In this document: positions 32,097-46,737 of the stretch, one piece after another
Layout: each line of letters opens with the position of its first letter
Position numbering within the stretch: the stretch's first letter is position 1
Assembly (NCBI GenBank): GCA_017617445.1
Contig: JAFZWE010000014.1
Span: 82-64,081 of the forward strand
DNA length: 64,000 nt
Reading direction: 5' to 3'
DNA from: Bacteroidales bacterium
GTDB taxonomy: Bacteria; Bacteroidota; Bacteroidia; Bacteroidales; WCHB1-69
Notes under the pieces: model-generated
Told to the model about the DNA's origin: nothing
The model's input: the letters and a program-made list of their open reading frames with translations, nothing else
Database searches by the model: none
Translations under genes and position numbers: made by a program

Positions 32097-32105
32097 GTGG
32101 GAAAC

Positions 32106-33138: not shown

Positions 33139-33522
33139 TTACAGCACGTTCAGCAGGTTCCGCAACAACCACCATAGCACCATCAGGATCAAGTAGATCC
33201 CCACCACGGCGGAACTGCTTAAAAAATTCCGCAACCGCACACACCTGTGAGGTGGCACGAACCACATCACACCCGCGAGCGCCACGGCATACGGAATGGA
33301 AAGAATCATGAACACATTATATCCCAATGCTTTGCAGAACTGTCCATGCAACAGGCAATGGAAAGCCCTTTGGGTGCCACAAGCCGGGCAATCCCAACCG
33401 GTCAACCAATGGAAAAGGCACTGGGGCACCCATGGCGTTTGCTCCGGATTAAAGAAAAAAAGAACCGTTCCCACAATCAAAAGGGCAACGGTTCCTATGA
33501 CAGCAATGTATATAGGTTTCAC
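33139..33522 (-). CDS. DUF2752 membrane protein
   Basis: Four-Cys motif (CLFHWLTGWDCPACGTQRAFHCLLHG) plus TM helices. Confidence 0.7.
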   Translation of the reverse strand: MKPIYIAVIGTVALLIVGTVLFFFNPEQTPWVPQCLFHWLTGWDCPACGTQRAFHCLLHGQFCKALGYNVFMILSIPYAVALAGVMWFVPPHRCVRLRNFLSSSAVVGIYLILMVLWWLLRNLLNVL

Positions 33523-33545: not shown

Positions 33546-34214
33546 TTATAAAGCAAACATCGCAGCGCCTGTCACCACATAAAAAATGACGTTAATAACG
33601 ATGCTCAGCAATCCCAGGAAGAATCCCCACCAGAACCAGTTGCGGGCCTTTCGGGCGGACTCTTTTGCACCGGCATAATTTCCTGCCTCCCATTGTCCAT
33701 TCACCTTTGAGGCATGCACAATGGAGACGATACCAAAGGGAAGACAGCAGAAAATGGTACACAGGATGGCTCCTGTCAAATAGCTGTTGGGCTTGCCTCC
33801 CGGAGGCGGGGTCTGGTAACTGCCGGCATAGGGAGCCTGATAACCCCTTGAAGGAGAATTCTGATAGCCGCCAGGGGTGCCGTAATTGGGAGAACCCTGT
33901 GGCGGGGGCGTGCTACTTGCATAGTTCGGTGAAATGTCCGGGCCGGAGAAGTTCACCACCGTAGCCGAGGCAATGCCGAAATAATCACACCAGGGGAGCG
34001 TAGAATTGCCTATTCGGACCACATCTGATGGTTTCAACTGCATCCTTTCCCGGCACAGCGTACCGTTCACGTACGTGCCGTTAGTGGAATTATTGTCCGT
34101 GATAAAGACATTGCCGTAATTGTCTTGTTCCATTTGGCAATGACTGCCCGATACGGTGGGGTCATTAATTACCACATCATTATGCGAGCCTCGCCCGATG
34201 CGCAAAATCCTCAT
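33546..34214 (-). CDS. FHA domain protein fused to a P/G/Y-rich linker and a CD225/dispanin-type membrane domain
   Basis: FHA: RIGRGSHNDVVINDPTVSGSHCQ...STNGTYVNG...VRIGNSTLPW. Linker: PPPQGSPNYGTPGGYQNSPSRGYQAPYAGSYQTPPPGG. CD225-like: YLTGAILCTIFCCLPFGIVSIVHASKV. Confidence 0.8.
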   Translation of the reverse strand: MRILRIGRGSHNDVVINDPTVSGSHCQMEQDNYGNVFITDNNSTNGTYVNGTLCRERMQLKPSDVVRIGNSTLPWCDYFGIASATVVNFSGPDISPNYASSTPPPQGSPNYGTPGGYQNSPSRGYQAPYAGSYQTPPPGGKPNSYLTGAILCTIFCCLPFGIVSIVHASKVNGQWEAGNYAGAKESARKARNWFWWGFFLGLLSIVINVIFYVVTGAAMFAL

Positions 34215-34275
34215 ATTTCAAAATGTTATTTGGTTGTAAAAAATTTAAGCGTGGCAAACCTTAGATTTACGGCAG

Positions 34276-34283
34276 CAAAAATA
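34276..34283 (-). promoter_or_regulatory. -7 box TATTTTTG for the FHA-CD225 / DUF2752 pair
   Basis: Matches TAnnTTTG in the 79-nt gap between the MORN gene stop (34294) and ATG 34214. Confidence 0.55.
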
Positions 34284-34293
34284 CAAAATTTAA

Positions 34294-36039
34294 TCAATTT
34301 ACAATATTATCATTTTGCCACTGCTGATTCTCCCTTTTCCCGTTTGCGTAATACATTATTCCCGTTCCATCCCGCACACCGTTCTTGAACTGGCCCTCAT
34401 ACCTGTCGCCATTGGCGAAATAATAGACGCCCTGCCCTTCCTTTTTCCCTGACCTGAACTGACCCTCATATCTGTCGCCATCAGCATAATACAAAACTCC
34501 ATAGCCCTCCCTGGCCCCGTTATTGAAATCCCCTGCATACCAGTTTCCAGAAGACCAATAAAACCTCCCGTGGCCCGTACGCATATTCATAAAGAAATCC
34601 CCCTCATACCGGTCGCCATCAGGCCAATAATACGTACCTGTTCCATGTTGAAGACCGTTCTGGAATTGTCCCTGGTACCACTCCCCATTCACCCAATACA
34701 TGGTTCCATAGCCCGATATCTCATCCTCCACAAATTCTCCCTCATACACTCTTCCATCAGCATAATATAGTACACCCTTGCCCTCTTGAAGATCCTCACT
34801 GAATTGTCCCTCGTACCTGCTTCCATCAGCGAAGTGATAAGTTCCCTGTCCGTACATCATATCGTCCTGGAATTGTCCTTCAGACCAATCCCCATTGGCA
34901 AAGTGGAAGGCTCCTTGGCCGTTTAACTTGCCATGTTCATAGTGTCCCTCCGACCAATCCCCATCAAACCAATAGAACCTGCCTTCACCTTCCATGTTTC
35001 CCTGATTAAAATCGCCCTCATACCGGTTTCCGTTTCTAAAGTAATATGTTCCCTCACCCTGCGGAAGGCCATCTTTGAGCAGTCCCACATATTGATCTCC
35101 CGATGCATAAAAAAAAGTTCCCTGTCCGATGGGGTGACCATCTTCAAAATGTCCCACATATTGGTCACCGTTGGCAAAATAGAACGTACCCTGCCCGTTA
35201 GGCACACCATTCCTGAATTGTCCCACATAACTGTCACCATTGGGAAAAGAGCACGTGTCTCTCACTTCTCCTCCAGCCTGTTCAACATGAATGGTACGGG
35301 TTGTTCCCTTCCTTGACACCTGCACATCCGCATTTCTTGTTTGTGCGCGGTTGTTGGGCGAGCAGGAAATCAACAGCTGACCATTCTGTTTGGAAAGGAT
35401 AATCCAATTGGCGGAAGTTTTGCAATTCTCCCTTTTCCAAAAGAAATTGGCGGTCACACTCACCTGCTGGCTACCGCCAGTACCGGCAAAGGAGAGGAAT
35501 TCCGGATGGACATCCAGTTCAGTCCGTCCTTCCTGTTGCGTAATCACGAATCCTCCTGTTTCATTTTTTTGGGTTTTTAGCACCACCCTTCCCTTTCTAC
35601 TGTCTGCCGTCGGGTTGGCACTGACCCTGAAAGTAATCTTCTTTTCCTTCAAATCCTTATTCACCACCTCCAACCATGAAGGTGTGCTGGCCACATACCA
35701 TGCTGTCGGAGCCTTGCTAAAGCTAACCTCAAGCATCCCTTCCTCGGCAGAGCAATGCAAATCAGTGGCCGCCAGTTTAAATACATTAATTTTGTTTCTG
35801 CACTCCTCGCATTCAAGTTTTGCCCTCGGATCATACGCTGCCTCCTTGCAATCTTTAAAGAGTTTTTCATACCATGTCACTGCATTATTATACTCTTTTT
35901 TTTCTTTGCATTCCCTGGCGCTTTGTAATATCAGATTACAATCGGACTGTGCCATAGCAGTTCCCATTGTTCCCCACGTCCCCCAAAAGAGAATCAGGAG
36001 AGCGCCCACCCACATTGAACACTTATTTTTATTCATCAC
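34294..36039 (-). CDS. Exported protein with two BACON-like domains and 13 MORN repeats
   Basis: Signal peptide MWVGALLILFWGTWGTMGTAMAQ. BACON-like: WYVASTPSWLEVV...RVSANPTADSRKGRVVLKT and ANWIILS...CSPNNRAQTRNADVQV. There are thirteen Y.G.F..G...G.G.(Y/F)...G(D/N) units. Its ATG overlaps the kinase stop (ATGA). Confidence 0.8.
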   Translation of the reverse strand: MMNKNKCSMWVGALLILFWGTWGTMGTAMAQSDCNLILQSARECKEKKEYNNAVTWYEKLFKDCKEAAYDPRAKLECEECRNKINVFKLAATDLHCSAEEGMLEVSFSKAPTAWYVASTPSWLEVVNKDLKEKKITFRVSANPTADSRKGRVVLKTQKNETGGFVITQQEGRTELDVHPEFLSFAGTGGSQQVSVTANFFWKRENCKTSANWIILSKQNGQLLISCSPNNRAQTRNADVQVSRKGTTRTIHVEQAGGEVRDTCSFPNGDSYVGQFRNGVPNGQGTFYFANGDQYVGHFEDGHPIGQGTFFYASGDQYVGLLKDGLPQGEGTYYFRNGNRYEGDFNQGNMEGEGRFYWFDGDWSEGHYEHGKLNGQGAFHFANGDWSEGQFQDDMMYGQGTYHFADGSRYEGQFSEDLQEGKGVLYYADGRVYEGEFVEDEISGYGTMYWVNGEWYQGQFQNGLQHGTGTYYWPDGDRYEGDFFMNMRTGHGRFYWSSGNWYAGDFNNGAREGYGVLYYADGDRYEGQFRSGKKEGQGVYYFANGDRYEGQFKNGVRDGTGIMYYANGKRENQQWQNDNIVN

Positions 36040-37538
36040 TTTTGACTGTTATCCATTTTTGCAGATGGTTTCATTTTCACTTGCGAAACACTTTGTGGAG
36101 AAATCTGTTCCAGTATTCTGCTGATCACAAATTCTTTTTTGCACAACGTATCAAAGAATGGTCCCTCACCCAATCCTTTTGAATTCAAATCCTCAATTTC
36201 CATTACGATTTTGCTTTTCTCATCCTTTATTTTTTGTGTATAGAGTGCGATTCTTTTTTCCAAGCCGTATTCGTTCCCCGTCTTGCTGAATAAATCATCT
36301 TTTTCTATATTTTCAATTTCCTTCAATCGATCCATTGCCTCTATGACATGGGTTGGATTGGTCATATCGTTGGAAATATTTATTCTATTCACATGAAAAT
36401 CAAATTCCCTGATCGCTTTATCATACGTGCTGTCCAATTCGTGGATTTTCTTCTCCTGTTTTCTCATTTCAGCTTCTACCTTCTGCTGATGCTGTTTCAC
36501 ATTCATAAAAATAGCGATTGACAGCCCGGAAATCACCGCAACAGCAACAGCAATCACCCACCATATCCACTTCTTGTTCTTTCTAACCACCACAATGGAT
36601 TTGCTCCCGATGGTTTCGTCCACCAGTTCAGAAGGACGGATATTGCGCAGGTCATCCATAAAGTCCTTCACGGTCTGATGGCGGTTTTCAGCCTTCAGTT
36701 GCATGGCTTTCAGGATGGTGCGGTTCATTTCCTCCGGGATATTCGGGTTAAGCTCCCTGGGTTCAGGCATTCGCTCTGTCATTCGGGCTGCGGCCTCCAG
36801 CGGCACACGCCCGGTGAGAACGAAATAGAGGGTGGCCCCGATGGAATAAATGTCAGTATAGGAACCCTTGCGGCTGTTGGCCGTGTACTGTTCGGTAGGC
36901 GCATAGCCGTGTGTGAGCATGGCGGTGTGCATCTGGGTCTTGTCGTGTTCAAATTCGCGAGCAGAACCGAAGTCAATGAGAATGGCTTTGTAGTCATCGG
37001 TAATCATGATGTTTTCGGGCTTGATATCGCGATGCAGGATGTTCCGTTCGTGAATATAGCCCACAGCATTTGTGATCTGCGCCAGATAGTTCACTGCCTC
37101 GGAATATGAAAGCGGACCTTTTTTTTCCACAGTATTCTGCAAAGTACACCCCTCAATGAATGGCATGACCATGTAGGATGTGTTATTCTCGTCAAAAACA
37201 TCAATCACCTCCACAATGTTGGGGTGATGGAGAGCTGCCAGCGTTTTGGCCTCTCGCACAAAAGCCTCGCGGTACTTCTCAAACATCTCCTTGCTGATCC
37301 CCTGCAGCTGCACGGTACGGGCTTGTGTGTTGCGCACGCATCTTCCAGCCAAAAAAAACTCCTTAATACAAACGGAACGATTAAGACCTTGTTGTACAGC
37401 CCTATAAGTAATACCGAAGCCTCCCTCCCCTATCTTTTTTTCAATGATGTATTTGCCGCCATATAATTCCGTACCTGACGGCAACTCTTTCTGATTGTGG
37501 GATGTTTCTATTTCTGACATATCGTTTTGCATTATCAT
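36036..37538 (-). CDS. Hanks-type Ser/Thr protein kinase with a TM helix and a helical C-terminal domain
   Basis: GEGGFGITY, VCIKEF, HRDIKPENIM, DFGSA, YAPTEQ. TM helix: WIWWVIAVAVAVISGLSIAIF. Confidence 0.9.
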   Translation of the reverse strand: MIMQNDMSEIETSHNQKELPSGTELYGGKYIIEKKIGEGGFGITYRAVQQGLNRSVCIKEFFLAGRCVRNTQARTVQLQGISKEMFEKYREAFVREAKTLAALHHPNIVEVIDVFDENNTSYMVMPFIEGCTLQNTVEKKGPLSYSEAVNYLAQITNAVGYIHERNILHRDIKPENIMITDDYKAILIDFGSAREFEHDKTQMHTAMLTHGYAPTEQYTANSRKGSYTDIYSIGATLYFVLTGRVPLEAAARMTERMPEPRELNPNIPEEMNRTILKAMQLKAENRHQTVKDFMDDLRNIRPSELVDETIGSKSIVVVRKNKKWIWWVIAVAVAVISGLSIAIFMNVKQHQQKVEAEMRKQEKKIHELDSTYDKAIREFDFHVNRINISNDMTNPTHVIEAMDRLKEIENIEKDDLFSKTGNEYGLEKRIALYTQKIKDEKSKIVMEIEDLNSKGLGEGPFFDTLCKKEFVISRILEQISPQSVSQVKMKPSAKMDNSQK

Positions 37539-37578
37539 TATTTCTTCTATGATGACAGCAGTTCACTGCTGTTAAAAT

Positions 37579-38127
37579 TCATTTTAGGGATATTTCAACT
37601 TCAGAGAAGACCAGGCATGTATCCACTGTATTTTGCTCTCCCTGCGTCTCTGCTTGTTCGCAGTCTGGCTCCTCCTGGGTGCACTTCTCCACTGAAGAGG
37701 GGGGCAGGGCACTCTCATCGTGTTGTGTCCATGCGAACACCAGCGCGCTGCCAATAGCCAACACGCCGATGATTCCCAGCACGAGGGGTAGAATGTACAT
37801 GCGCTGACGGAACAGGCGCCGCTTAAAAAAACAGCGTTTCCTTGGTGCATTTTCCACAATATCCGTTATCGGAATCGGGGCAACATTCCCGAAATACCTC
37901 CTCCAAGGCAATGTGGTATTGCCAATCCTGACAATATCGTTCACATTCAGCACCGTCGGGCCTTTGATGAGGTTTCCATTGACATAGGTACCATTGGCGC
38001 TCCCCAAATCCACGATGTTAAAAGTATCTCTGTCTATTTGCGCAATCTGACAATGATGTCTGCTCACTGTATCGTCATTGATGTCAACATCATTCTGCGC
38101 ACCCCTTCCGATTGTCACTACCTTCAT
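37579..38127 (-). CDS. FHA domain protein with a TM helix and a short Cys-containing acidic tail
   Basis: TIGRGAQNDVDINDDTVSRHHCQ...SANGTYVNG...VRIGNTTLPWRRYF. TM helix: MYILPLVLGIIGVLAIGSALVFAW. Confidence 0.85.
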   Translation of the reverse strand: MKVVTIGRGAQNDVDINDDTVSRHHCQIAQIDRDTFNIVDLGSANGTYVNGNLIKGPTVLNVNDIVRIGNTTLPWRRYFGNVAPIPITDIVENAPRKRCFFKRRLFRQRMYILPLVLGIIGVLAIGSALVFAWTQHDESALPPSSVEKCTQEEPDCEQAETQGEQNTVDTCLVFSEVEISLK

Positions 38128-38128
38128 T

Positions 38129-38977
38129 TTAATATTTTTTTGACTTCATGAAACCTTTGATTGCAGAAGCGAATTCTTCGCACGACTGGTACCGTGAAGA
38201 GGGATTCTTAGCCAAAGCCCGTTCCACAATTTGCTGCAATTCATTGCTAATCATAGGATAATACTGGATCATAGGCGGGACGGGGGCGTATTTGATCTTA
38301 TGTCTGATTTCAGCCAGATTTTGTCGCGGATTGGGATTGTCGGACGTGAACGGAAGATGGCCTGTAAGCATTTCAAACAGCATGATTCCCAAGGCGAAGA
38401 TGTCTGTGTACTTGCCCACCTGACCTTTTTCCGCTTGCTCTGCCGGCATGTAGGCAGGCGTGCCGAAGCCGGTGCTGCTCGTGGCCTCCGAGATACGCGA
38501 GGCAATTCCCAAATCAATGAGTTTCAAATTGCCATCGGACTGTATCATGACATTGTTGGATTTGATGTCCAAGTGCAGGACTCCCTTTCTGTGGAGGTAA
38601 CCCACCGTGTCCAGAATTTTCAGGAACATGGGCAGTGCCCTCTGTTCCGGAATCAGCCCTATTTCCCTGTAAATGAAATATTCAAGGCTCCTTCCTTCTA
38701 CAAACTCCATGACAATGAACAATTGTTCAGTCTCTTTCATGTCAATGAAGTCCACCAGCTTAGGAATATTGGGGTGCTGCATGTACAGGTACATTTGAGC
38801 CTCCATCTCCTTGAATTTCTGTTTGATGACAGGATTTTTAAAATGTCTTATTTTCAATTCCTTGATAGCCACCGGATAGCCGCTCCGCAAATCCTTTCCC
38901 AGATAAACCCTGGCGGTCCCTCCTTCGGCTATCAGTTGTTCAACACGGTACCATGGGATTCTCGGTAAATTTTCCAT
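38129..38977 (-). CDS. Soluble Ser/Thr kinase-domain protein with an atypical HLD catalytic loop and a DLG motif
   Basis: AEGGTARVY, VAIKEL, HLDIKSNNVM, DLGIA, PAYMPAEQ. It is 282 aa with no TM helix. Confidence 0.85.
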   Translation of the reverse strand: MENLPRIPWYRVEQLIAEGGTARVYLGKDLRSGYPVAIKELKIRHFKNPVIKQKFKEMEAQMYLYMQHPNIPKLVDFIDMKETEQLFIVMEFVEGRSLEYFIYREIGLIPEQRALPMFLKILDTVGYLHRKGVLHLDIKSNNVMIQSDGNLKLIDLGIASRISEATSSTGFGTPAYMPAEQAEKGQVGKYTDIFALGIMLFEMLTGHLPFTSDNPNPRQNLAEIRHKIKYAPVPPMIQYYPMISNELQQIVERALAKNPSSRYQSCEEFASAIKGFMKSKKY

Positions 38978-38985
38978 CTCTCTTA

Positions 38986-40131
38986 CTATTTTTCGCTTGG
39001 GGTTTGGGTTGAATCGTTCGCAGCGTCAAGTTTCACCTCCTTGTTTTTTTTCGGAGACGATGCCGGAACAGGGGCAGGCATAGATTCCAATGAGTCCACA
39101 AATTTCTCCATGGCATCAATGATATTCTGTTTCTGTTGGTCTGATGCAGCCTTATATTGGCTTTGGATGGTGCTTTTTGCCGTGGTCGTCTCCCATTTCT
39201 GCTGGGCACAGAAATCTTTTTCGTGACCCTTCAATTGTTTCAAATAAAATTCAAAAACCTTGTCTTTGCTCTGGGCTTTCAGTTTTTCGTTTTCCTTTTG
39301 AAGTTCCTTATTTTTTTTCAGTGCCTCCTCTTTTGCTTTCTTTTCCCTTTCCAACTCTTTCTTAAGGTTCTCAAATTCTTCTTTTATTTTTTTCAACTGC
39401 GTTTCCGCTGCCACCTTTGCTGTTTCAGATTTTGATGCCTTTTCTTCAGCGTCTTGGGCTGCTTTTGATGCCTTCCTTGCTTTTTCTTCCGCATCTTTCG
39501 CTTTATTTTCCGCATCTGTGGATTTGCTATTTGCTGCTTTCTCCCTCATCTTTGCGGCATTGGCCAGTTCCCTGTCTGCTTCTGCCCGCTTTTGGGCGGC
39601 AACTGCACTGTCTTTGGCAGCCTGCGCCACGGCATTGGCATACTCGCTTTCTGCTTTGTAGAATTCGTTTTCTGCCTGGCGCATTTGCTCCTCCAAATCC
39701 ACACTGTTCTTTCCTGTTTTGGATTGTTCCACAGCAGTTTGTACGGTTTTCTTTGAAGCTCTCCCGCCCATTTTCCCAGAACCCGCATACCAGAAGATGC
39801 CTCCAGCGGTCAGCAGCAACACCCCCGCCACAATCCACAGCCCCCACACGCCGCGTTTTGCGCCCGGCTCCGACCGTTTCTTTTTTTTCTCAAAATAGCT
39901 TTGCCACGGCAATTCGGTATTGCCGATTTTCAAAATGTCGCCCGGTCGAAGGGGAACCGATCCCCGGATGCGCTGGCCATTGACAAAGGTGCCATTGGTG
40001 GAATCCAAATCCACCACAGCGTAATTGCCATCGTCATCCTGAACAATCTGCAGATGATTGCGGCTCACCTTGTCATCCTTGACAATGATGTTGTTGTTTT
40101 CGCTAATTCTTCCTACAGTTATTACTTTCAT
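38986..40131 (-). CDS. FHA domain protein with a TM helix and a K/E/A-rich coiled-coil tail
   Basis: TVGRISENNNIIVKDDKVSRNHLQ...STNGTFVNG...LKIGNTELPWQSYF. TM helix: VWGLWIVAGVLLLTAGGIFWY. The long tail contains AEEKARKASKAAQDAEEKASK. Confidence 0.85.
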   Translation of the reverse strand: MKVITVGRISENNNIIVKDDKVSRNHLQIVQDDDGNYAVVDLDSTNGTFVNGQRIRGSVPLRPGDILKIGNTELPWQSYFEKKKKRSEPGAKRGVWGLWIVAGVLLLTAGGIFWYAGSGKMGGRASKKTVQTAVEQSKTGKNSVDLEEQMRQAENEFYKAESEYANAVAQAAKDSAVAAQKRAEADRELANAAKMREKAANSKSTDAENKAKDAEEKARKASKAAQDAEEKASKSETAKVAAETQLKKIKEEFENLKKELEREKKAKEEALKKNKELQKENEKLKAQSKDKVFEFYLKQLKGHEKDFCAQQKWETTTAKSTIQSQYKAASDQQKQNIIDAMEKFVDSLESMPAPVPASSPKKNKEVKLDAANDSTQTPSEK

Positions 40132-40145
40132 ACCATTGTTTCCGT

Positions 40146-41396
40146 TTATTTTCTTAAAGCCTGCAAATTTTCACGAATCACCTCCATCTCCCCCAACAAA
40201 CTCATCTGTTTGGATTTGATTTTTTCGTACTCTGATTTTTTCTCGTTATAAAAATCTTCTCTGCCATCCACCACATTCTGAGCTGCATCTTGTGTATTTT
40301 TATTTTTATTCAGCGATTCATCGCGTTTTTTTTCTGCATCTCTCAACCCCTCCAATGCTACTTGTTTTAAGCTGTCAGCTTTCCGCAATTCCGCCCCATT
40401 GGTTTTAAGCTCCGACTCTATTCTCAAAGAATCCTTTTGTAATTCTTTGATTTTAATTCGGTTAGTAACCGGTTTCCAAGCAATAGACACAGCCAGTACA
40501 AGGGCGAGAGCAATGGCGGTAATCAGGATATACTTGAGTTTTTGGGGCATGTCCGAGGCTTTTTTTCCACGTTTTCTCCGCGGAGTGTTGAAGCTCACAC
40601 ATGCCGTTTTGGCCCAAGGGCTGTTGTCAATCTGAATCAGCTCAAGGGTGCAGTTGTCCTGTCCTCCAGGCTGGACGGTCTCCCCTTCCATGGCAAGCCG
40701 TATCAGCTGTTCTCCTTTTTCTTCCAAGGCACAGTCTTGACTGAGCACATTCTCAATGGTGCCATCGGAAATCATGCCAGAGAGTCCATCAGTGCAAATG
40801 AGAAAGACATCCCCATTTTTGGGGCGTATCGGACGGTTTTCATAGTTGAAAGAGGGTTGGAGGGTGGTGGAAACGCCCAGGGCCTTGAGAATACGGTTTT
40901 TTTGAGCATGGTGCTCTGCCTCCTCATCGGTAATCTCACCGGCATCCACCAGGGTTTGCACGAAAGAGTGGTCCTTGGTTATACGGTGCAGTTTCTTCTC
41001 CTTGCCAAGAAAAAGGTAGATTCTGCTGTCGCCCACATGGGCAATCCACACGTCGCAGCCCCTCATGAGCAGGATACAGGCGGTAGTGCCCATACCTTTG
41101 TAATCCGGATTGGCAGCAGCGAAGCCCATCACCTGCATGTTGGCAAATTGCAGCGCATCGTTCAGTGCCGCGACGGGATCTGGATACTCCTCTTTTTTCA
41201 GATAGCTGATGATGCTTTCCACGGCGAGTGAGGAGGCCTTGGCACCGCCCACATGTCCGCCCATGCCGTCGCATACCACAAACACGTCCCCATTCGGAGT
41301 TTTCAATGCCATGTCGTGGCTGTCCTCCTGAACTTCCCGCACATTGCCCACCACACCTTTTGCAAAAATATGATCTGTGTTGGTTGTTAGACTCAT
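40146..41396 (-). CDS. PP2C-family Ser/Thr phosphatase with a TM helix and a coiled-coil tail
   Basis: REVQEDS, VVCDGMGGHVGG, HVGDSRIY, ICTDGL, GGQDNCT. TM helix: YILITAIALALVLAVSIAW. Confidence 0.9.
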   Translation of the reverse strand: MSLTTNTDHIFAKGVVGNVREVQEDSHDMALKTPNGDVFVVCDGMGGHVGGAKASSLAVESIISYLKKEEYPDPVAALNDALQFANMQVMGFAAANPDYKGMGTTACILLMRGCDVWIAHVGDSRIYLFLGKEKKLHRITKDHSFVQTLVDAGEITDEEAEHHAQKNRILKALGVSTTLQPSFNYENRPIRPKNGDVFLICTDGLSGMISDGTIENVLSQDCALEEKGEQLIRLAMEGETVQPGGQDNCTLELIQIDNSPWAKTACVSFNTPRRKRGKKASDMPQKLKYILITAIALALVLAVSIAWKPVTNRIKIKELQKDSLRIESELKTNGAELRKADSLKQVALEGLRDAEKKRDESLNKNKNTQDAAQNVVDGREDFYNEKKSEYEKIKSKQMSLLGEMEVIRENLQALRK

Positions 41397-41406
41397 AATT
41401 ATTTAA

Positions 41407-41841
41407 TTAGCTGTTTTTTTGTTCCCATACTTTATAAAAACTTTCCGGCAGATAAACATTTCTAATATCAGCCTCTATTGCCCTGAAAAACAGAGGTGCA
41501 ATATCAACAGGTGAAAACCCCGCAATGCCACACCCGATCTCCGTCACCAAGAAATCCAATTCAGCATGCATTTGAGCAAATTGGAGGAAATCTTCCACGT
41601 AGGGTTGGATGGTCTCCACACCGCCCTGCATAGTGGGGATAGCGTAAGACTGTCCAAACAAGCCCACGCCCTCACCCCACACAGCACCGAAATGCTCATG
41701 GGCGAAACGCGCCGCCCCACCGCCATGCCGCCCTTGAAGGTTACTGCCAAACACAAAAACCTCGTTGGGAGCGAGGTGTGCAATTCTATTGGATGATATG
41801 CGTTTTTTGTTCATTTTCTGAAAAAAAATTGGTTTATACAT
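41407..41841 (-). CDS. Small Rossmannoid protein (macro- or SLOG-like, family uncertain)
   Basis: VFVFGSNLQGRHGGGAARFA..GQSYAIPT..LVTEIGCGIAGF. It overlaps the upstream stop by 8 nt; an alternative ATG is at 41814. Confidence 0.55.
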   Translation of the reverse strand: MYKPIFFQKMNKKRISSNRIAHLAPNEVFVFGSNLQGRHGGGAARFAHEHFGAVWGEGVGLFGQSYAIPTMQGGVETIQPYVEDFLQFAQMHAELDFLVTEIGCGIAGFSPVDIAPLFFRAIEADIRNVYLPESFYKVWEQKNS

Positions 41842-43363
41842 AAAAAGTGATCACCGCCTCACCGAGGGCAATCATGTCTCCGCTTCTCAGTGTGCAGCGT
41901 TGAAAGAACTGTCCGTTCACCAGGATACCCTGTGTGTAGGTCTTGCTCCTGTTGATCACCTCGAACGCGATGCCATTGAAGGAAATTTCAGCATGGAGGC
42001 CTGAAACGGTGCCATCGTTAAGAGCCACGTCATTGTCCGGGTTTCGTCCGAGGGTGACACGCGGCTTGACCATGGAATAGGCGAACATGTCTCCCTTGAC
42101 ATTGCAATGGAACCTGGGAAACAGGTTTTTCGTCTGCATCAGCTGTGTCAGCCGCACCTCCTCTTCCTCCGCCTGTCTGCGATGTTCATCCACAGCCTGT
42201 TGTTTTTTCAGGCTGACAATTTCCTCCATAGAACGGGCGAGTTCTTCTTTCTGACGAGCTTCACTCTCCGCCATTTTTTTTGACTGGGATTTCGACTTCC
42301 AATGGATGAACAGGATGATAAAAACCACAAGCAGCACAATCAACACGCCAGCCATAATCACCCAAAGCAGATGTTCCTTCATCCAGTCGCCAACAGTTTT
42401 CTCCGGCGGCGGAAATGAAAGCGGAGGCAGGTGATAAGAGACGCCCTCCACATCCAAAGACATGAAATGCCTGCTGCCATCCTTGTTGGCATCAGTGGTG
42501 AACACAATTTCATAGTCTCTTCCGTATGCGCGCTGGTCCATATCACCGTACCACTCCTGGAGTTTGTCCACCGTGTATGCAGCGTCCGCCTGGGTGTTGT
42601 GCGTGGGAGATGCTGAGGTGTGCAGTCCGTATGTGGGTCTCAATCGCTCCACCACGGCCGTTTCCTCACTGCCGGGTCTAAAAGGATAGGTAATCACGTA
42701 TATGGGGGTGCTCAATTCTTTCGCGCCTCGCACGATTCCGTCCCCATTATTGGACCTTCCCGTCTCCACATTATAGCCGGCAGTAACCAAAACGATAATG
42801 CGTGCCCGGTCCGTCGGTTCGTTTTTCATCATTTCAAAAGCCTCTGACAAAGCACTGTACAAGTCTGTTTGCAGGGGCTGAACAAAAGTCTCTTGGCTGA
42901 AACTGTGATTTTCCACAGCCTCCACCAGTTTGTCCTTGTCGTCTGTGAATTGGGAGGACAACGGAGTGAGCATTTTCTGTCCATCTCGTTTGCGATTAAA
43001 GACAGCCACGTTGAATTTGTCCTCCGAAGCCAAGGGAGTCTCCTTGAAGAAACGAATCAGCACCTCTTGTGTGAAAGAGGATTGTTGTCCATGACTGGCC
43101 ATATCCTCCCACAAAAAGAGAATGCTTTTCGGGGTTTTCTTCAATGACAGATCCGACAATTTCAACTGGAAGTTCACATCCCCGCCCTGATCATCTCTCA
43201 ATTTGAATTGCTCCTCGGTCAACGCATCCGGCTTCTGTGTGTGCCACACAAAAGAAATCTCTGGATAATTGTCCTTGTCATACGCGCCTAACATTCTGTC
43301 CCGCTGCGCACACGTTTCCCCCACCAACAAGGCAAAAAACAAGCATAAAAGAAATCTTCTCAT
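41834..43363 (-). CDS. Signal peptide + vWA-like ectodomain (degenerate MIDAS) + TM helix + coiled coil + C-terminal FHA
   Basis: Signal peptide MRRFLLCLFFALLVGETCAQ. vWA-like layout: ILFLWEDMASHG ... FNVAVFN ... TDLYSAL ... RIIVLVTAGYN ... PIYVITYP. TM helix: LLWVIMAGVLIVLLVVFIILFI. FHA: TLGRNPDNDVALNDGTVSGLHAE...VNGQ. Confidence 0.7.
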   Translation of the reverse strand: MRRFLLCLFFALLVGETCAQRDRMLGAYDKDNYPEISFVWHTQKPDALTEEQFKLRDDQGGDVNFQLKLSDLSLKKTPKSILFLWEDMASHGQQSSFTQEVLIRFFKETPLASEDKFNVAVFNRKRDGQKMLTPLSSQFTDDKDKLVEAVENHSFSQETFVQPLQTDLYSALSEAFEMMKNEPTDRARIIVLVTAGYNVETGRSNNGDGIVRGAKELSTPIYVITYPFRPGSEETAVVERLRPTYGLHTSASPTHNTQADAAYTVDKLQEWYGDMDQRAYGRDYEIVFTTDANKDGSRHFMSLDVEGVSYHLPPLSFPPPEKTVGDWMKEHLLWVIMAGVLIVLLVVFIILFIHWKSKSQSKKMAESEARQKEELARSMEEIVSLKKQQAVDEHRRQAEEEEVRLTQLMQTKNLFPRFHCNVKGDMFAYSMVKPRVTLGRNPDNDVALNDGTVSGLHAEISFNGIAFEVINRSKTYTQGILVNGQFFQRCTLRSGDMIALGEAVITFYV

Positions 43364-43370
43364 ACACCAA

Positions 43371-43997
43371 TTACAACGACGTTCTGAATTTCATAGTGGT
43401 TTTCCCCATACGGATGGTATCCCCATCCTGCAAATAACGGGGTTCCAGCTCAATATCCTCTTCATTGACAAATGTTCCGTGAGAGGACTGCATGTCGGTG
43501 ATGGAATATTTGCCAGCCCTGTACAGCAGCACCGCGTGTTTTCCAGAGACCATATTGTCATTGATGGTGATACTACAATCCATATCACGCCCGATAATGT
43601 TCCGGCCCTCATAAAGTTTGAAATCTATTCCCATGACATCCAAACTGTAGGAGACCAGCCAACCCACCATCTTGCGTGCATTTCTAAAAACATTATCTGA
43701 AACGGGCCCACAAGTTCCAGTAGCCGCACCCTCTACCAAAGTCTCATCATCTCCGAAGACCGTATGCGAAACAGGGGTATAGCTGCCTCCTGCATTTCCA
43801 CCCACATGCATTACTGTTTTTCCATTTGTCGCTCCATCAGGATAAACACTTGTAGCCTGCTGATCTTCCCCCTCATTGGAAAAAACAACTGTTTTGCTGC
43901 TATTCACGTTTCCCCCAACGCTTTTCATTTTACAAAACGGGCACTTGTCCCCCTGATAATAATGTCCGTTTGGACATTGTTTGAACTCATTTCCCAT
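43371..43997 (-). CDS. Zinc-ribbon + FHA domain protein
   Basis: Zinc ribbon CPNGHYYQGDKCPFC at the N-terminus. FHA: NIIGRDMDCSITINDNMVSGKHAVL...SSHGTFVNE...IRMGKTTMKF. Confidence 0.8.
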   Translation of the reverse strand: MGNEFKQCPNGHYYQGDKCPFCKMKSVGGNVNSSKTVVFSNEGEDQQATSVYPDGATNGKTVMHVGGNAGGSYTPVSHTVFGDDETLVEGAATGTCGPVSDNVFRNARKMVGWLVSYSLDVMGIDFKLYEGRNIIGRDMDCSITINDNMVSGKHAVLLYRAGKYSITDMQSSHGTFVNEEDIELEPRYLQDGDTIRMGKTTMKFRTSL

Positions 43998-44033
43998 AGT
44001 TTAAAGTTTATAATAATTTTTTAATGTGCGTGG

Positions 44034-44041
44034 CAAAAATA
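44034..44041 (-). promoter_or_regulatory. -7 box TATTTTTG heading the FHA/kinase/phosphatase operon
   Basis: Matches TAnnTTTG, 37 nt upstream of ATG 43997, in the 88-nt gap after the preceding gene. Confidence 0.55.
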
Positions 44042-44085
44042 CGATTTTTTTAAGAATGAAAGATGGGGTTTATACAACATGACCT

Positions 44086-45177
44086 TTAGTATTTCCTATT
44101 AAGCACTGCACTCTCTGGCGCCAGACCACTCCCCTCTTGCCACAATATTCTCCAGATAATCTTTCTGTCTGACATGGGGATTATAACAGCTTCCCCATAC
44201 CCGCCCCAACCAGTCTCATATTTAACCACATACTTCTCTCCATCCCATTCTCCTTTCATATTTTCAATTTCAAGATCCCCATCCATCTTCATACCCACCG
44301 CATATATTACGAAATAGCCGCCTTTAATATGGGATCCTGAACATTCCAGATTCAAAGAAAAATCCCATGACGGGAAACTGCCTAATTCAATATCAACAAT
44401 ATAGTTAGATTCCCCCTGCCACTCCCCCGATATATCAGGAACATACACAAAGTCACTCCCGTAATCAAACTCATCGTACTCGTCCTCCGAACTGTTCTCC
44501 CACACCTCAATTTCCGCTATCTTGACAGATGTACGGATGGACTGATGTATGTGATACGGAAGATCTTCCGCATCATAGTTCGTATCAAAATCCGATGGCG
44601 GACTAATGGAAGCAATCCCATCCCATTGAGCATCCGTAAACTGGTCCAAATAGAAAACAAAAGCGATATTGCAGTTCCCTTTTTGGGCTATGGCAAGGGT
44701 AGCAGAGGATATGGTATGGGTGAAATGATTGTAGTACAAAAAATCCGTAAAAAATTCCAGTTCCGGATATGCATTTTCCATATCGCCCCATGTATCTCCA
44801 ACACGGACATGCCGTTCGGTCTGGAAGTTTCTGTTCCGGGTACAAAACCCACTCAACCGTGCATTGTCATTGAAAAATGCGGCCGTAGTATTATTGATCA
44901 AATAATAGTCATACCCTTCATAATAATATATTGCAGCATCCTCATCCCAATTGTCCTCGCGTCTGAATCTTTTAATAGAGGCGTTGGCATTCTCATTGCG
45001 CAGCTCCGCCATAGTCATGCCAAATCCAAGTTTCACACCGTCAATATAGAAATCCCATCCGGCGGGGAATTTTATTCCCTCCTCAAGCCCCCTCCCCCGA
45101 GAATCAAAAACAGAATCCTCCCCTTTTGAATCCATCATGAAAAAAAGCACAATAAACATCAACGCAGGAAGCTTCAT
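44086..45177 (-). CDS. Hypothetical exported protein (AT-rich, no recognised domain)
   Basis: MKLPALMFIVLFFMM looks like a signal peptide. I chose the start at ATG 45177 (alternative 45207), because the track start at 45285 falls inside or upstream of the -7 box at 45283-45290. Confidence 0.5.
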   Translation of the reverse strand: MKLPALMFIVLFFMMDSKGEDSVFDSRGRGLEEGIKFPAGWDFYIDGVKLGFGMTMAELRNENANASIKRFRREDNWDEDAAIYYYEGYDYYLINNTTAAFFNDNARLSGFCTRNRNFQTERHVRVGDTWGDMENAYPELEFFTDFLYYNHFTHTISSATLAIAQKGNCNIAFVFYLDQFTDAQWDGIASISPPSDFDTNYDAEDLPYHIHQSIRTSVKIAEIEVWENSSEDEYDEFDYGSDFVYVPDISGEWQGESNYIVDIELGSFPSWDFSLNLECSGSHIKGGYFVIYAVGMKMDGDLEIENMKGEWDGEKYVVKYETGWGGYGEAVIIPMSDRKIIWRILWQEGSGLAPESAVLNRKY

Positions 45178-45282
45178 GCCAGGAAGAAATCTGATTCCAA
45201 GACCCATCTTTTTGATATAAAAATTGTTACAATAAATTTTTGTTAATAAATTCCGGAAAAGAATTTCATTTTTTATCAGCTG

Positions 45283-45290
45283 CAAAAGTA
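45283..45290 (-). promoter_or_regulatory. -7 box TACTTTTG for the 44086..45177 gene
   Basis: Matches TAnnTTTG. Confidence 0.45.
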
Positions 45291-45381
45291 AAAAAAAACA
45301 GTTTACAGCCCCATTTTCCAGCTTTGATTTTCAGGAAGGACATTCACAAAAAAAGTTCATCAGCTTTTGCGAAAAAAGTTG

Positions 45382-45389
45382 TATTTTTG
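45382..45389 (+). promoter_or_regulatory. -7 box TATTTTTG for tRNA-Ser
   Basis: Matches TAnnTTTG and ends 5 nt before the tRNA 5' end. Confidence 0.65.
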
Positions 45390-45393
45390 CCGC

Positions 45394-45480
45394 GGAAAGT
45401 TGCCGGAGTGGTCGAACGGGGCAGACTCGAAATCTGTTGAGCTCTTCGGGGCTCCGGGGGTTCGAATCCCTCACTTTCCG
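45394..45480 (+). tRNA. tRNA-Ser (anticodon CGA)
   Basis: GGAAAGT acceptor stem pairs with ACTTTCC. The anticodon arm is GCAGA-CTCGAAA-TCTGT. There is a long variable arm (TGAGCTCTTCGGGGCTCC) and a T arm GGGGG-TTCGAAT-CCCTC. Confidence 0.9.
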
Positions 45481-45487
45481 CAAACAA

Positions 45488-45517
45488 AAAGGCGATGCAA
45501 AAAAGCATCGCCTTTTG
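45488..45517 (+). terminator. Rho-independent terminator after tRNA-Ser
   Basis: GGCGATGC-AAAAAA-GCATCGCC followed by TTTT. Confidence 0.75.
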
Positions 45518-46711: not shown

Positions 46712-46737
46712 CGCATTATATAAAATCAATTAAAACA

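Follow-up and report, generated by a model that had tools for sequence, protein, structure and literature searches.

In type VI secretion systems (T6SS), the PpkA-PppA-Fha1/TagH pathway, consisting of a transmembrane (TM) Hanks kinase, a PP2C phosphatase and an FHA adaptor, governs assembly of an envelope machine, and the vWA domain of P. aeruginosa PpkA faces the periplasm. In actinobacteria, the operon fhaA-fhaB-pstP-rodA-pbpA-pknA-pknB encodes two Hanks kinases along with a TM PP2C and a pair of FHA proteins. In the TerY-P triad, the vWA protein TerY, a PP2C and a kinase are encoded together (Anantharaman et al. 2012, Gao et al. 2020). Phosphorylation control was also proposed for novel T7SS subtypes, in which FHA proteins and a vWA protein accompany a PPM phosphatase and an active TM kinase of EssB-like topology (PMC11217815). 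These subtypes, T7SSc-j, were reported from Bacillota and Actinomycetota only (Garrett & Palmer 2024, PMC11217815), and the same paper cites the A. tumefaciens case of the T6SS threonine phosphorylation pathway. Sulfolobus ArnA (zinc finger and FHA, approximately 210 aa) and ArnB (vWA) are encoded side by side and act together with a phosphatase and Hanks kinases; the FHA domain of ArnA binds its phosphorylated partner, and ArnB, a cytoplasmic protein whose MIDAS is intact, regulates archaellum expression (PMC6509490). Finally, Deinococcus DRA0331-DRA0334 comprises a vWA protein, a TM kinase, an FHA protein and an FHA-PP2C, for which a local kinase/phosphatase/FHA circuit was proposed (bioRxiv 10.64898/2026.01.23.701218).

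The window, i.e. the whole stretch of 64,000 nucleotides that was analysed, carries ten co-directional ORFs on the minus strand between positions 33546 and 43997, all at the coordinates given by the first-pass annotation. Their products include five FHA proteins (one of them, g10, an FHA-CD225 fusion), two Hanks kinases, a PP2C, a vWA-fold ectodomain, a macro-fold protein and an exported 2xBACON/13xMORN protein. The cluster is real, conserved and so far undescribed, and belongs to uncultured gut Bacteroidales. All ten genes of the extent proposed earlier were confirmed; the cluster is probably one gene longer at either end. From upstream to downstream, the features are:

44086-45285, minus strand: exported or N-terminally anchored protein of 373-399 aa without a Pfam family; probable upstream member
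44034-44041, minus strand: TATTTTTG box, a Bacteroidetes -7-type promoter motif; intergenic, 37 nt upstream of the g1 ATG
43371-43997, minus strand: g1, cytosolic, 208 aa; zinc ribbon (CPNGHYYQGDKCPFC), Thr-containing linker and FHA (E 8.3e-19)
41834-43363, minus strand: g2, 509 aa; signal peptide, beta/vWA-fold ectodomain, TM (335-353), long helix and divergent FHA (Pfam, AlphaFold, Foldseek)
41407-41841, minus strand: g3, macro-fold protein of the A1S_2505 family (NCBIfam NF049995, 145.6 bits, cut-off 45)
40146-41396, minus strand: g4, 416 aa; PP2C (Pfam PP2C_2/PP2C; PP2C_2 E 1.1e-14), TM (289-307) and coiled-coil tail
38986-40131, minus strand: g5, 381 aa; FHA (E 3.6e-20), TM (95-113) and K/E/A-rich coiled coil
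38129-38977, minus strand: g6, soluble Hanks-type kinase of 282 aa (Pfam Pkinase E 2.9e-51)
37579-38127, minus strand: g7, 182 aa; FHA (E 3.9e-20), TM (112-130) and Cys/acidic tail
36036-37538, minus strand: g8, 500 aa; Hanks kinase (Pfam Pkinase E 2.6e-47), TM (327-345) and helical tail
34294-36039, minus strand: g9, 580-581 aa; signal peptide, Cys-flanked TPR-like hairpin, 2 BACON and 13 MORN (Pfam)
34276-34283, minus strand: second TATTTTTG box; intergenic, 62 nt upstream of the g10 ATG
33546-34214, minus strand: g10, 222 aa; FHA (E 7.8e-20), P/G/Y-rich linker and CD225 with two hydrophobic segments (E 9.1e-23)
33139-33522, minus strand: DUF2752 membrane protein, 127 aa, GTG start (PF10825, 63.8 bits, cut-off 27); probable last gene

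Pfam searches bore out the domain calls of the first-pass annotation. FHA domains were recovered in g1, g2, g5, g7 and g10 (E 5.5e-12 to 3.6e-20), and canonical pThr-binding residues are present in four of the five, the exception being g2, which has no SxNGT loop. The g5 domain is canonical (GR...SxxH...STNGT). For the FHA domain of g1 the nearest solved structures are M. tuberculosis FhaA and GarA; the zinc ribbon of this protein is kept in 37 of 37 orthologues and its linker holds conserved Thr positions. Both kinases and the PP2C were likewise confirmed, with catalytic motifs retained in g6 (VAIK, HLDIKSNN and DLG; Gly loop degenerate) and g8 (GEGGFG, VCIK, HRDIKPEN and DFG). Identity of g6 to orthologues in related loci is mostly 60-76%, falling to 43-47% for the most distant. 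The phosphatase g4 keeps all metal-binding motifs (REVQED, DGMGG, GDS, DGL and QDN) and reaches 225.4 bits with the Stp1/IreP model (cut-off 230). Topologies were called by a crude hydropathy and positive-inside analysis, which places the vWA domain of g2 outside the cytoplasm and predicts g8 to be membrane-anchored with an extracytoplasmic helical tail. In g7, seven K/R residues precede the TM segment and none follows it, and the protein is therefore predicted to be N-in.

The vWA-like ectodomain proposed for g2 scored just below threshold in Pfam (22.4 bits vs 23.8), and the vWA fold was confirmed by the predicted structure: the AlphaFold model has a pLDDT of 83, and its Foldseek matches are vWA proteins, namely ITIH1 (E 4.7e-12), PitA, integrin beta, Rpn10 and TFIIH p44. 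Its MIDAS is non-canonical, reading W-E-D-M-A-S-H, with VTAG replacing TDG. The ectodomain family is small, with 98 clusters at 90% identity and, among 1.84 billion, 181 representatives at 50%, nearly all of about 500 aa. Ten contigs from several samples yielded an identical g2 protein. The g3 product, described earlier only as Rossmannoid with a suggested Macro/SLOG check, proved to have a macro fold, by NF049995 and by an AlphaFold model (pLDDT 84.6) whose top Foldseek matches are all macro domains (PARP14, YmdB, Poa1p, TARG1 and DarG). It matches PHROG 2072, its A1S_2505 family is phage-borne with homologues in 324 phage records, and Bacteroidales homologues are 75-88% identical. As an optional accessory, g3 probably binds or removes ADP-ribose.

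The MORN and BACON calls on g9 were upheld (Pfam MORN 1.4e-69, two BACON), the 13 MORN units standing in an exact 23-residue register. Among relatives, the TM kinase is always followed by an exported gene; in one group of these partners the N-terminal hairpin/BACON part is common and the C-termini vary (MORN, PEGA or OM beta-barrel). CD225 in g10 was also confirmed, and the FHA-CD225 fusion forms approximately 80 clusters, the named ones from Bacteroidales MAGs only.

The core order, ZnR-FHA, vWA-TM-FHA, PP2C-TM, FHA-TM, soluble kinase, variable FHA 'clients', TM kinase, exported partner, FHA-CD225 and DUF2752, is repeated in 37 other Bacteroidales MAGs (L001-L037). Because it recurs in these 37 loci, the gene arrangement is far beyond chance, and fortuitous adjacency, which would have refuted the original claim, is not borne out. 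Carriers amount to 37 species out of 185,579, all of them MAGs, and gene content differs strongly between loci. The position of the core gene g5 between PP2C and soluble kinase is constant, while g7 belongs to the variable FHA-TM 'client' set, whose number in the stretch between the kinases ranges from 0 to 6 among relatives. The 89 accessory FHA proteins all have an N-terminal FHA domain; it is fused to CD225 (7), Asp protease (5), FtsK (4), subtilase (2), DUF4190 (2), DUF805 or DUF4234, and the remaining proteins are TM plus coiled coil. The surplus of FHA readers, flagged earlier as an oddity along with the exported partner and the CD225 fusion, is thus a family trait (up to nine FHA genes per locus), and the other two are real features that recur in relatives. 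DUF2752, which starts 23 nt after g10 in the window, follows FHA-CD225 in L009, L016, L017, L024, L037 and L064, and L017 and L037 contain one more FHA gene beyond it. For the 44086-45285 product, a Pfam search gave no match; its residues 74-263 share 47% identity with the C-terminal domain found in an L064 FHA 'client', which sits directly ahead of the TM kinase, and a homologue lies within the cluster in L005. Both flanking genes are probably cluster members.

At least eight related loci add an EccC/EssC-like FHA-FtsK ATPase and WXG100 proteins. The ATPase matches EccC (3.5e-15), EccC5 and YukB better than FtsK (3.5e-7) and, unlike canonical EssC, has no predicted TM segment and one clear Walker A. 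The WXG100 candidates, of approximately 90 aa, match EsxA, EsxB, gbs1074 and HP0062 over their full length (E 7e-7 to 1e-5). In L030 and L036, and weakly in L034, a WXG100-like domain of approximately 85 aa heads longer proteins, a pattern like that of polymorphic toxins. L064 combines macro, PP2C, g5-like, soluble kinase, FHA-CD225, DUF2752, FHA-FtsK, WXG100, up_399-like domain and TM kinase in a single run. In the searched literature T7SS come from Gram-positive phyla only.

We regard the cluster, with a probability of about 50%, as a pThr-dependent inner-membrane signalling and assembly platform. Since in at least eight relatives one FHA client is an EccC/EssC-like FtsK ATPase followed by WXG100 proteins, the family is best read as a chassis, both regulatory and structural, for T7SS-like export in Bacteroidales, which the window carries without ATPase or cargo. 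For this locus the T7SS link is by association in relatives only, because the window contains no FtsK/EccC homologue and no WXG100-like ORF; several relatives also stop at DUF2752 with no ATPase in view. In such a platform, the g2 ectodomain and/or g9 with the g8 tail would read an envelope or extracellular cue, and g8 and g6 would phosphorylate their own Thr sites as well as those of linkers, e.g. the conserved g1 positions. FHA domains would dock on these pThr sites, so that the membrane 'clients' (coiled-coil g5, g7, and g10 CD225 with DUF2752) assemble with the cytosolic adaptor g1 in a complex that g4 would reset. The output would then come either from an ATPase gene at another site in the genome or from CD225/DUF2752, the membrane modules, in their own right. 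Two features of g2, an FHA domain without SxNGT loop and a vWA domain without canonical MIDAS, count against this reading, as does the departure of the FHA-FtsK proteins from canonical EssC.

In this reading the family parallels both the kinase/PPM/FHA/vWA sets found in T7SSc-j and the T6SS pathway PpkA-PppA-Fha1. With T7SSc-j it shares a vWA protein, a PPM phosphatase and separate FHA proteins; relatives of the window also have an FHA-bearing EccC/EssC-like ATPase and WXG100 proteins. The g8 kinase shares the TscD/TsdD plan of a cytoplasmic kinase, one TM and a helical extracytoplasmic tail, the topology described for TscD/EssB (PMC11217815). However, the host is a diderm, the g2 vWA is periplasmic and FHA-fused whereas TscE is cytoplasmic, the PP2C is membrane-anchored, FHA proteins are far more numerous, no ubiquitin-like TsxB was seen here, and the window lacks an ATPase or WXG100 gene. 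The cluster resembles the T6SS pathway in combining a TM Hanks kinase with a PP2C and an FHA adaptor, but vWA is fused to FHA here and to the kinase in PpkA. A T6SS phosphorylation module proper was rejected, T6SS genes being absent and the TagH model TIGR03354 reaching 30-40 bits (cut-off 120). The likeness of g1/g2 to ArnA/ArnB is an architectural resemblance that does not imply orthology; the g2 vWA differs in being extracytoplasmic, with a degenerate MIDAS and an FHA of its own. All four domain types of DRA0331-DRA0334 occur here as well, a likeness by domain content, whereas the Deinococcus operon has four genes, a PP2C-fused FHA and a link to the DNA-damage response. The first-pass annotation had also drawn comparisons with TerY-PP2C-kinase triads and FhaA/FhaB-PstP-PknA/B modules, which hold as resemblances and fail as memberships. 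Like TerY-P, the cluster joins vWA, PP2C and Ser/Thr kinase; in contrast, its vWA is exported and non-MIDAS, it comprises 10-12 FHA-dominated genes, and a PADLOC search of the g2 vWA and g4 PP2C proteins gave no match. The FHA domains are nearest FhaA/FhaB, but distribution is patchy, not universal, and membership in the FhaA/PknB division cluster was rejected on missed NCBIfam equivalog cut-offs and the lack of PASTA and rodA/pbpA. No paper describing this gene cluster was found in the searched literature, so that the concern that it might be an already characterised system did not materialize.

An anti-phage or abortive-infection system appears rather unlikely. In such a system, phage attack or envelope damage would be sensed by the vWA domain in the periplasm or by the exported partner, the kinases would become active, FHA-tagged effectors (CD225 and other small membrane domains, proteases) would come together and damage membrane or proteome, and the macro protein would counter or sense ADP-ribosylation. 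It would fit the variable, paralogue-rich accessory set with its protease and small-TM 'effector-like' fusions, the patchy distribution with two copies in one MAG (L021 and L024), the phage-borne g3 family, a type I R-M system adjoining one relative and phage-like genes adjoining L065. The kinases g6 and g8 also resemble the defence kinases PD-T4-6 and mad6 in PADLOC, but these matches are generic to the kinase domain and no other cluster protein matches any PADLOC model. Moreover, the cluster has no nuclease, NADase or other classical effector, its flanks in the window are ordinary chromosomal genes (ruvB, flavodoxin and GH97), and the sole clear output among relatives consists of an ATPase of the secretion type and its WXG100 cargo. 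A housekeeping role in regulating envelope growth or division, equivalent in Bacteroidales to that of FhaA/FhaB-PstP-PknA/PknB, is very improbable: the PstP-like TM-anchored PP2C, FHA-TM proteins and two kinases, FHA domains nearest FhaA/FhaB/GarA and PknB/Stk1 as top NCBIfam kinase model agree with it, but equivalog scores are far under the cut-offs (PknB_PASTA 223 and 211 vs 450; FhaB 60 vs 125), PASTA, rodA and pbpA are missing from the cluster, and the small g2 family, the few MAG-only carriers and the strong variation in gene content speak against it. There is equally little chance that a T7SS-like locus is decaying here without coherent function after losing ATPase and cargo: both are missing locally and close relatives hold richer versions, but all twelve ORFs, flanking genes included, are intact with lengths like those of orthologues, catalytic motifs are preserved, the ATPase-less FHA-CD225 plus DUF2752 ending is shared by L009, L016, L017, L024 and L037, and the identical g2 protein comes from several samples.

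Spacers of 7, -8, 10, 14, 8, 1 and 40 nt, as listed earlier, agree with the ORF coordinates. The value of -8 between g2 and g3 needs the upstream ATG, however; homologues of g3 all begin MNKKR, and the probable true start is ATG 41814 (135 aa), giving +19 nt. An ATGA overlap reported for g8/g9 had to be corrected, the real junction being GTGA (GTG start) or a 1-nt TGATG overlap (ATG start). Both TATTTTTG boxes were found at the reported sites in intergenic DNA. The one at 44034-44041 is only suggestive as the cluster promoter, because the motif is just mildly enriched in the window (44 copies vs 31 ± 6 expected). Downstream, a convergent ruvB starts 4 nt past the DUF2752 gene, and on the other side a strong hairpin terminator (45487-45516) lies between the 44086-45285 gene and the flavodoxin gene.

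A gene-neighbourhood survey, in which one genome per species was scanned and the window proteins were compared by BLASTP with the ORFs of each locus, showed that the order of the FHA-rich cluster recurs in 37 Bacteroidales loci. Among the groups represented are Prevotellaceae, Bacteroidaceae, Alistipes, Odoribacter, Tannerella, Paraprevotella and termite-gut lineages; all loci stem from metagenome-assembled genomes, two of them from a single one. The ten minus-strand ORFs of the window (g1 to g10), whose coordinates in the first-pass annotation agree exactly with the ORF listing, and their surroundings are as follows:

43371-43997, minus strand: g1, Zn-ribbon-FHA protein
41834-43363, minus strand: g2, vWA-like ectodomain, transmembrane (TM) segment and FHA domain
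start probably at 41814, minus strand: g3, putative macro-domain protein
40146-41396, minus strand: g4, PP2C with TM segment
38986-40131, minus strand: g5, FHA-TM protein
38129-38977, minus strand: g6, predicted soluble kinase
37579-38127, minus strand: g7, FHA-TM protein
36036-37538, minus strand: g8, predicted TM kinase
34294-36039, minus strand: g9, exported BACON/MORN protein
33546-34214, minus strand: g10, FHA-CD225 fusion
33139-33522, minus strand: DUF2752 membrane protein, 127 aa, GTG start, 23 nt downstream of g10 (PF10825, 63.8 bits against a cut-off of 27)
44086-45285, minus strand: up_399, exported protein adjoining the cluster on its upstream side, no Pfam family
30891-32096, plus strand: protein with signal peptide, DUF4424 and C-terminal YARHG
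32097-33134, plus strand: ruvB, zero spacer to the preceding gene, both convergent to the cluster
46699-48810, plus strand: 703-aa ORF, several hydrophobic N-terminal segments, no Pfam match

In the relatives, the genes for the Zn-ribbon-FHA and vWA-TM-FHA proteins are followed by optional FHA, macro or Zn-ribbon genes and then by those for the PP2C-TM protein, the FHA-TM coiled-coil protein and the soluble kinase; the series ends with zero to six FHA-TM genes, the TM kinase, an exported protein, FHA-CD225 and DUF2752. Identity to the window proteins is typically 50-77% for the kinases and PP2C, falling to 43-48% in the most remote loci, and only 28-42% for g2. Because the synteny recurs, a fortuitous adjacency of these genes was rejected. 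The finding is real, and the interpretation given in the first-pass annotation is supported and can be sharpened. In fifteen other loci outside Bacteroidales (L038-L052), the match to g2 was confined to its FHA domain; these loci had no related neighbours and were set aside. A reduced variant without vWA-FHA (L065, 5458-12601) comprises a soluble kinase, a kinase-FGE-sulfatase fusion, a 484-aa protein, FHA-CD225 and FHA-subtilase, and lies beside phage-like genes (DNA polymerase III alpha, HNH, NUMOD4).

The FHA, Pkinase, PP2C, MORN, BACON and CD225 domains called initially were confirmed by Pfam. All five proposed FHA proteins (g1, g2, g5, g7 and g10) pass PF00498 with E-values of 5.5e-12 to 3.6e-20. 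The canonical phospho-threonine contact pattern GR...SxxH...S/T-x-N/H-G-T is present in g1, g5, g7 and g10; g2 keeps GR and SGLH and has a divergent third loop. The cytosolic g1 carries an N-terminal Zn-ribbon, CPNGHYYQGDKCPFC, which all orthologues retain and which additional paralogues also carry. Its linker is variable overall, yet contains conserved Thr positions, which we read as candidate phospho-acceptor sites. Recurrent ribbons were noted across L001-L037, P0101 and P0189: the signature CPNGHYYQGxxCPYC (g1 residues 8-22, window 43974-43930) is found in g1 orthologues, in a 489-aa protein combining the ribbon with a degenerate kinase and in small proteins adjoining the macro gene, and a differently spelled Cys ribbon forms the C-terminal extension of some macro homologues.

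The FHA domain is N-terminal in all 89 accessory FHA proteins of the window and the 37 loci. Its partners are CD225 (seven proteins), a retropepsin-like Asp protease (five), FtsK/SpoIIIE (four), subtilase and DUF4190 (two each) and DUF805 and DUF4234 (one each); most often the partner is a TM segment combined with a coiled coil or with sequence of unknown type. The 5:2:1 ratio of readers, writers and erasers, singled out at first as lying outside described systems, is real; since some loci (L008, L011 and L058) contain nine FHA genes, it is a trait of the family and not peculiar to the window. The CD225 fusion likewise held up (g10, 80.6 bits against a cut-off of 27.1). FHA-CD225 fusions form approximately 80 clusters, annotated merely as 'CD225/dispanin family protein', and the few with a source name are all from Bacteroidales; other CD225 relatives have Zn-ribbon or GYF domains in place of FHA. 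DUF2752 follows FHA-CD225 in six relatives, and for this reason the DUF2752 gene of the window was counted in the cluster; the two look like a unit. One gene caller gives just a 56-aa product for 33139-33522.

Both kinases proposed from the sequence contain a Pkinase domain (Pfam). The motifs GEGGFG, VCIK, HRDIKPEN and DFG were found in g8, and VAIK, HLDIKSNN and DLG in g6, whose glycine loop is degenerate. Having the Pkinase domain together with the catalytic Lys, the HRD-type Asp/Asn and the DFG Asp, g6 and g8 are predicted to be Hanks-type Ser/Thr kinases. The single PP2C, g4, matched PF13672 with 55 bits (cut-off 24), and all its metal-binding motifs are there (REVQED, DGMGG, GDS, DGL, QDN). 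One TM segment each was located in g2 (335-353, after a signal peptide), g4 (289-307), g5 (95-113), g7 (112-130) and g8 (327-345, between the kinase domain and a helical tail), and two hydrophobic segments in g10. Hydropathy and positive-inside analysis thus predict a cytoplasmic location for the catalytic and FHA domains and a location outside the cytoplasm for the vWA fold and for the tails, whether coiled-coil or helical.

The vWA-like ectodomain of g2 missed the Pfam gathering scores (VWA 22.4 against 23.8, VWA_2 22.7 against 27), and the assignment stands by structure comparison. Comparison of an AlphaFold model (pLDDT 83, from a 23-sequence alignment) settles the predicted fold as vWA, with matches to ITIH1 (E 4.7e-12), the pilus adhesin PitA, the integrin beta I-like domain, Rpn10 and TFIIH p44, and the modelled C-terminal domain matches the FHA domains of GarA and OdhI. 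The domain has no canonical MIDAS: the beta1 loop reads W-E-D-M-A-S-H instead of DxSxS, where E86, D87 and H91 never vary within the family, and beta4 ends in VTAG(L/Y)N instead of TDG. Signal peptide and TM segment place it outside the cytoplasm (predicted). The g2 family comprises 98 clusters at 90% identity; even the closest of them are just 43-44% identical to the window protein, and those with a source name are from Bacteroidales bacterium. At 50% identity, 1.84 billion proteins include 181 representatives of the family, nearly all of 490-550 aa with a constant ectodomain position.

The gene after the TM kinase encodes an exported protein in every related locus with that position. In g9, Pfam detected two BACON domains and eleven MORN stretches, and a regular-expression count bore out the 13 MORN units in a perfect 23-residue register (residues 271-569). 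The exported partners fall into two groups. The first, including g9, has a signal peptide, a Cys-flanked TPR-like hairpin, usually BACON, and variable C-termini (MORN, PEGA or outer-membrane beta-barrel); the second is an unrelated family of approximately 450 aa. Relatedness of the partners rests on weak BLAST matches and the common hairpin; jackhmmer with the 270 N-terminal residues of g9 gave no match at 1e-3 among all locus ORFs. Upstream of g1, up_399 shares 47% identity with the C-terminal domain of an in-cluster FHA-tagged protein (L064, 18042-19439) and has a homologue within the L005 cluster.

Taken as a whole, the domains, motifs, folds and gene associations point, with a probability of roughly one half, to a phospho-threonine-dependent membrane assembly platform, of which the interactions and the output are inferred. 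The vWA ectodomain, the exported partner of the TM kinase, or both would sense an extracytoplasmic stimulus, which would lead to phosphorylation by g8 and g6. Variable FHA-tagged membrane proteins ('clients') and the Zn-ribbon-FHA adaptor could then dock, and the TM PP2C would reset the complex.

What such a platform may serve is suggested by the relatives. An ATPase of approximately 1100 aa with an N-terminal FHA domain followed by FtsK/SpoIIIE is encoded in the clusters of L003, L006, L033, L034, L002/L062 and L064, and L030 and L036 have a 913-923-aa FtsK/SpoIIIE protein between the Zn-ribbon-FHA and vWA-FHA genes. These eight loci are a minimum, each locus having been taken only up to 10 kb from g2. 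Against the PDB, a related ATPase matched Thermomonospora curvata EccC (3.5e-15), EccC5 and Bacillus subtilis YukB ahead of FtsK (3.5e-7). [quoted passage not shown]

L003, 16150-19827
L006, 15784-19445
L033, 17317-21280
L034, 7790-11479
L030, 2624-9256
L036, 3138-9791
L062, 20938-21524
L064, 11029-14632

The ATPase genes are followed by genes for proteins of 87-97 aa. A profile of eight such relatives of approximately 90 aa matched EsxA, EsxB, gbs1074, SAG1039 and HP0062 over the full length (E 7e-7 to 1e-5); in these WXG100-like proteins, W-x-D replaces W-x-G. In L030 and L036 the same domain of approximately 85 residues heads longer proteins (258-539 aa), which is the pattern of polymorphic toxins. 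A separate 627-aa protein of L036 (7908-9791) has a different N-terminal domain, common to L030 9261-9752, and a weak lipase match. L064 presents the whole set in one run: macro, Zn-ribbon kinase, PP2C, g5-like, soluble kinase, FHA-CD225, DUF2752, FHA-FtsK, WXG100-like, FHA genes, up_399-like and TM kinase. Both the EccC/EssC-type ATPase and the WXG100 protein are missing from the window, in contrast to the relatives: tblastn with the related FHA-FtsK and FtsK proteins gave FHA-domain matches only, and the WXG100 profile found no ORF in the six-frame translation. Since one client in the relatives is an EccC-like ATPase with WXG100 cargo, the family can be read as a T7SS-like chassis and the window as its ATPase-less form. 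The FHA-FtsK proteins have no TM segment at the threshold used and one clear Walker A motif, so they are not canonical EssC.

The closest described parallel is T7SSc-j of Bacillota and Actinomycetota. These subtypes encode a PPM phosphatase and an active membrane kinase with a topology like that of EssB, together with a cytoplasmic vWA protein and stand-alone FHA proteins, and control by phosphorylation was proposed for them (Garrett and Palmer, PMC11217815). T7SS were reported only from these two phyla in the literature searched, and no report of a T7SS-like system in Bacteroidota was found. A more far-reaching reading, which we put forward tentatively, is that diderm Bacteroidales possess a so far undescribed T7SS-like system for export or antagonism that is gated by phosphorylation, and that the cluster is one form of it. 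The FHA-TM proteins, vWA-FHA, TM kinase and TM PP2C would then constitute an inner-membrane platform, on which the soluble EccC-like FHA-FtsK ATPase would dock via phospho-threonine and drive export of WXG100 proteins and WXG100-headed toxins. In the window organism, the ATPase might come from another locus, or the CD225/DUF2752 membrane proteins might be the output.

The small protein g3, introduced as Rossmannoid and possibly of the Macro or SLOG type, gave no Pfam match, neither to Macro nor to any other family. It belongs to the A1S_2505 phage non-structural family (NCBIfam NF049995, 145.6 bits against a cut-off of 45; phrog_2072 in PHROGs), for which a literature search returned unrelated Acinetobacter papers only. 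A PDB sequence search yielded one marginal match (E 0.92), which made a fold comparison necessary. Nearly all of the top 50 Foldseek PDB matches of the AlphaFold model (pLDDT 84.6) are macro domains, including PARP14 macro 1, YmdB, Poa1p, TARG1 and DarG (probability ~1.0, TM 0.55-0.66, E only ~1e-3). By its modelled fold, g3 is a macro domain. A weak alignment pairs the GGGAA and GxGxxG loops with PDB entry 6ln0, whose chain bears the name 'Non-structural protein 3'. In it, N-x-V-F-V-F-G-S-N...GGGAA and E-I-G-C-G-I-A-G of g3 resemble macro phosphate-binding loops, the one support for a putative binding or hydrolysis of ADP-ribose. The gene is optional in the cluster (8 of 37 loci, plus L058/L059 and L064). 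The family includes 324 phage records (~50% identity) and more than 8000 close homologues in metagenomes; the 120 best-scoring of the latter are 74-99% identical to g3, a far stronger conservation than that of its neighbours. An anti-phage or abortive-infection system seems improbable to us; PADLOC matched only g6 and g8, with generic kinase models, so the cluster is not filed as TerY-P, PD-T4-6 or MADS. The g3 family also occurs outside the cluster, for instance adjoining a Tpt1/KptA gene. In L060 (9456-13341) and L061 (8103-11987), a close homologue lies near a Tpt1/KptA-type RNA 2'-phosphotransferase, a radical SAM gene and a DUF3791/DUF3990 pair, which hints at an ADP-ribose-related role.

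The resemblance to TerY-P, the vWA/PP2C/kinase triad, and to FhaA/FhaB-PstP-PknA/PknB modules had been pointed out before, and membership was found in neither by PADLOC and NCBIfam. TerY-P needs a cytoplasmic vWA with MIDAS, whereas the vWA of g2 is non-MIDAS and predicted to be extracytoplasmic; PADLOC returned no family for g2 and g4. PknB_PASTA_kin scored 223 and 211 bits against 450 (kinase domain only) and FhaB_Rv0019c at most 63 against 125, and the ORFs include no PASTA domain and no SEDS/PBP gene (rodA/pbpA). A housekeeping regulator of envelope or division is a quite unlikely explanation, and a decaying remnant equally so. The type VI secretion (T6SS) phosphorylation pathway was also rejected (TagH TIGR03354 at most 39.9 bits against 120), and no T6SS component was detected among the twelve genes or their immediate neighbours. 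The NCBIfam equivalogs FhaB, TagH, OdhI, GltG, EspA, PknB_PASTA and Stp1 all remained under their cut-offs, Stp1 just so (225 against 230). Partial likenesses exist: the Zn-finger-FHA (212 aa) and vWA pair ArnA/ArnB of Sulfolobus mirrors the invariant g1/g2 pair (PMC6509490), and the Deinococcus DRA0331-0334 operon has the same four domain types (bioRxiv 10.64898/2026.01.23.701218). Literature searches on FHA/PP2C/vWA, CD225+DUF2752+FHA, Hanks-type Bacteroides and FtsK+WXG100 retrieved no description of this cluster, in line with the view that it is not an already characterised system. What is new here is a variant among known Hanks-kinase/PP2C/FHA/vWA modules.

Bacteroidales are a dominant order of gut and rumen microbiota, and to our knowledge Hanks-kinase signalling is almost unexplored in them. 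The locus represents a conserved signalling set of several genes in which FHA proteins predominate and which includes an extracytoplasmic vWA receptor; its relatives link this set to EccC-like ATPases, WXG100 proteins and cargo resembling toxins. If this link is functional, T7SS-type secretion would extend to a Gram-negative phylum and a natural system of secretion gated by phospho-threonine docking would be at hand. Even without secretion, the cluster offers a tractable case of many FHA readers sharing two kinases and one phosphatase, and it links CD225 (IFITM-like) and macro domains with signalling in bacteria. The locus is of interest chiefly for three features: its association with T7SS-like genes in a Gram-negative phylum, its extracytoplasmic vWA-FHA receptor, and the pairing of FHA-CD225 with DUF2752.

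With regard to gene layout, the spacers originally read as 7, -8, 10, 14, 8, 1 and 40 nt match the coordinates, and 79 nt separate g9 from g10. All g3 homologues start at MNKKR; g3 itself therefore likely starts with the ATG at 41814, which makes the g2/g3 spacer +19 instead of -8. The 4-nt ATGA overlap reported for g8/g9 proved incorrect: the junction is AAG TGA TGA, which gives a GTGA overlap if GTG is the start and a 1-nt overlap if it is ATG. Both TATTTTTG boxes were found in intergenic DNA as described; the motif is only mildly enriched in the window (44 copies against 31 ± 6 expected). A scan for sigma-70 promoters and terminators was uninformative within the cluster, where terminator-like sites do not exceed chance. 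One border of the cluster is the convergent ruvB, the other a strong hairpin terminator (45487-45516). This hairpin, a perfect 12-bp palindrome flanked by A-runs and T-runs between a flavodoxin-like gene and the cluster, is likely a bidirectional terminator. The G+C content of the cluster region (34001-46000) is 0.44-0.48, compared with up to 0.60 across the window, and the GC skew is consistently negative, both compatible with acquired DNA.
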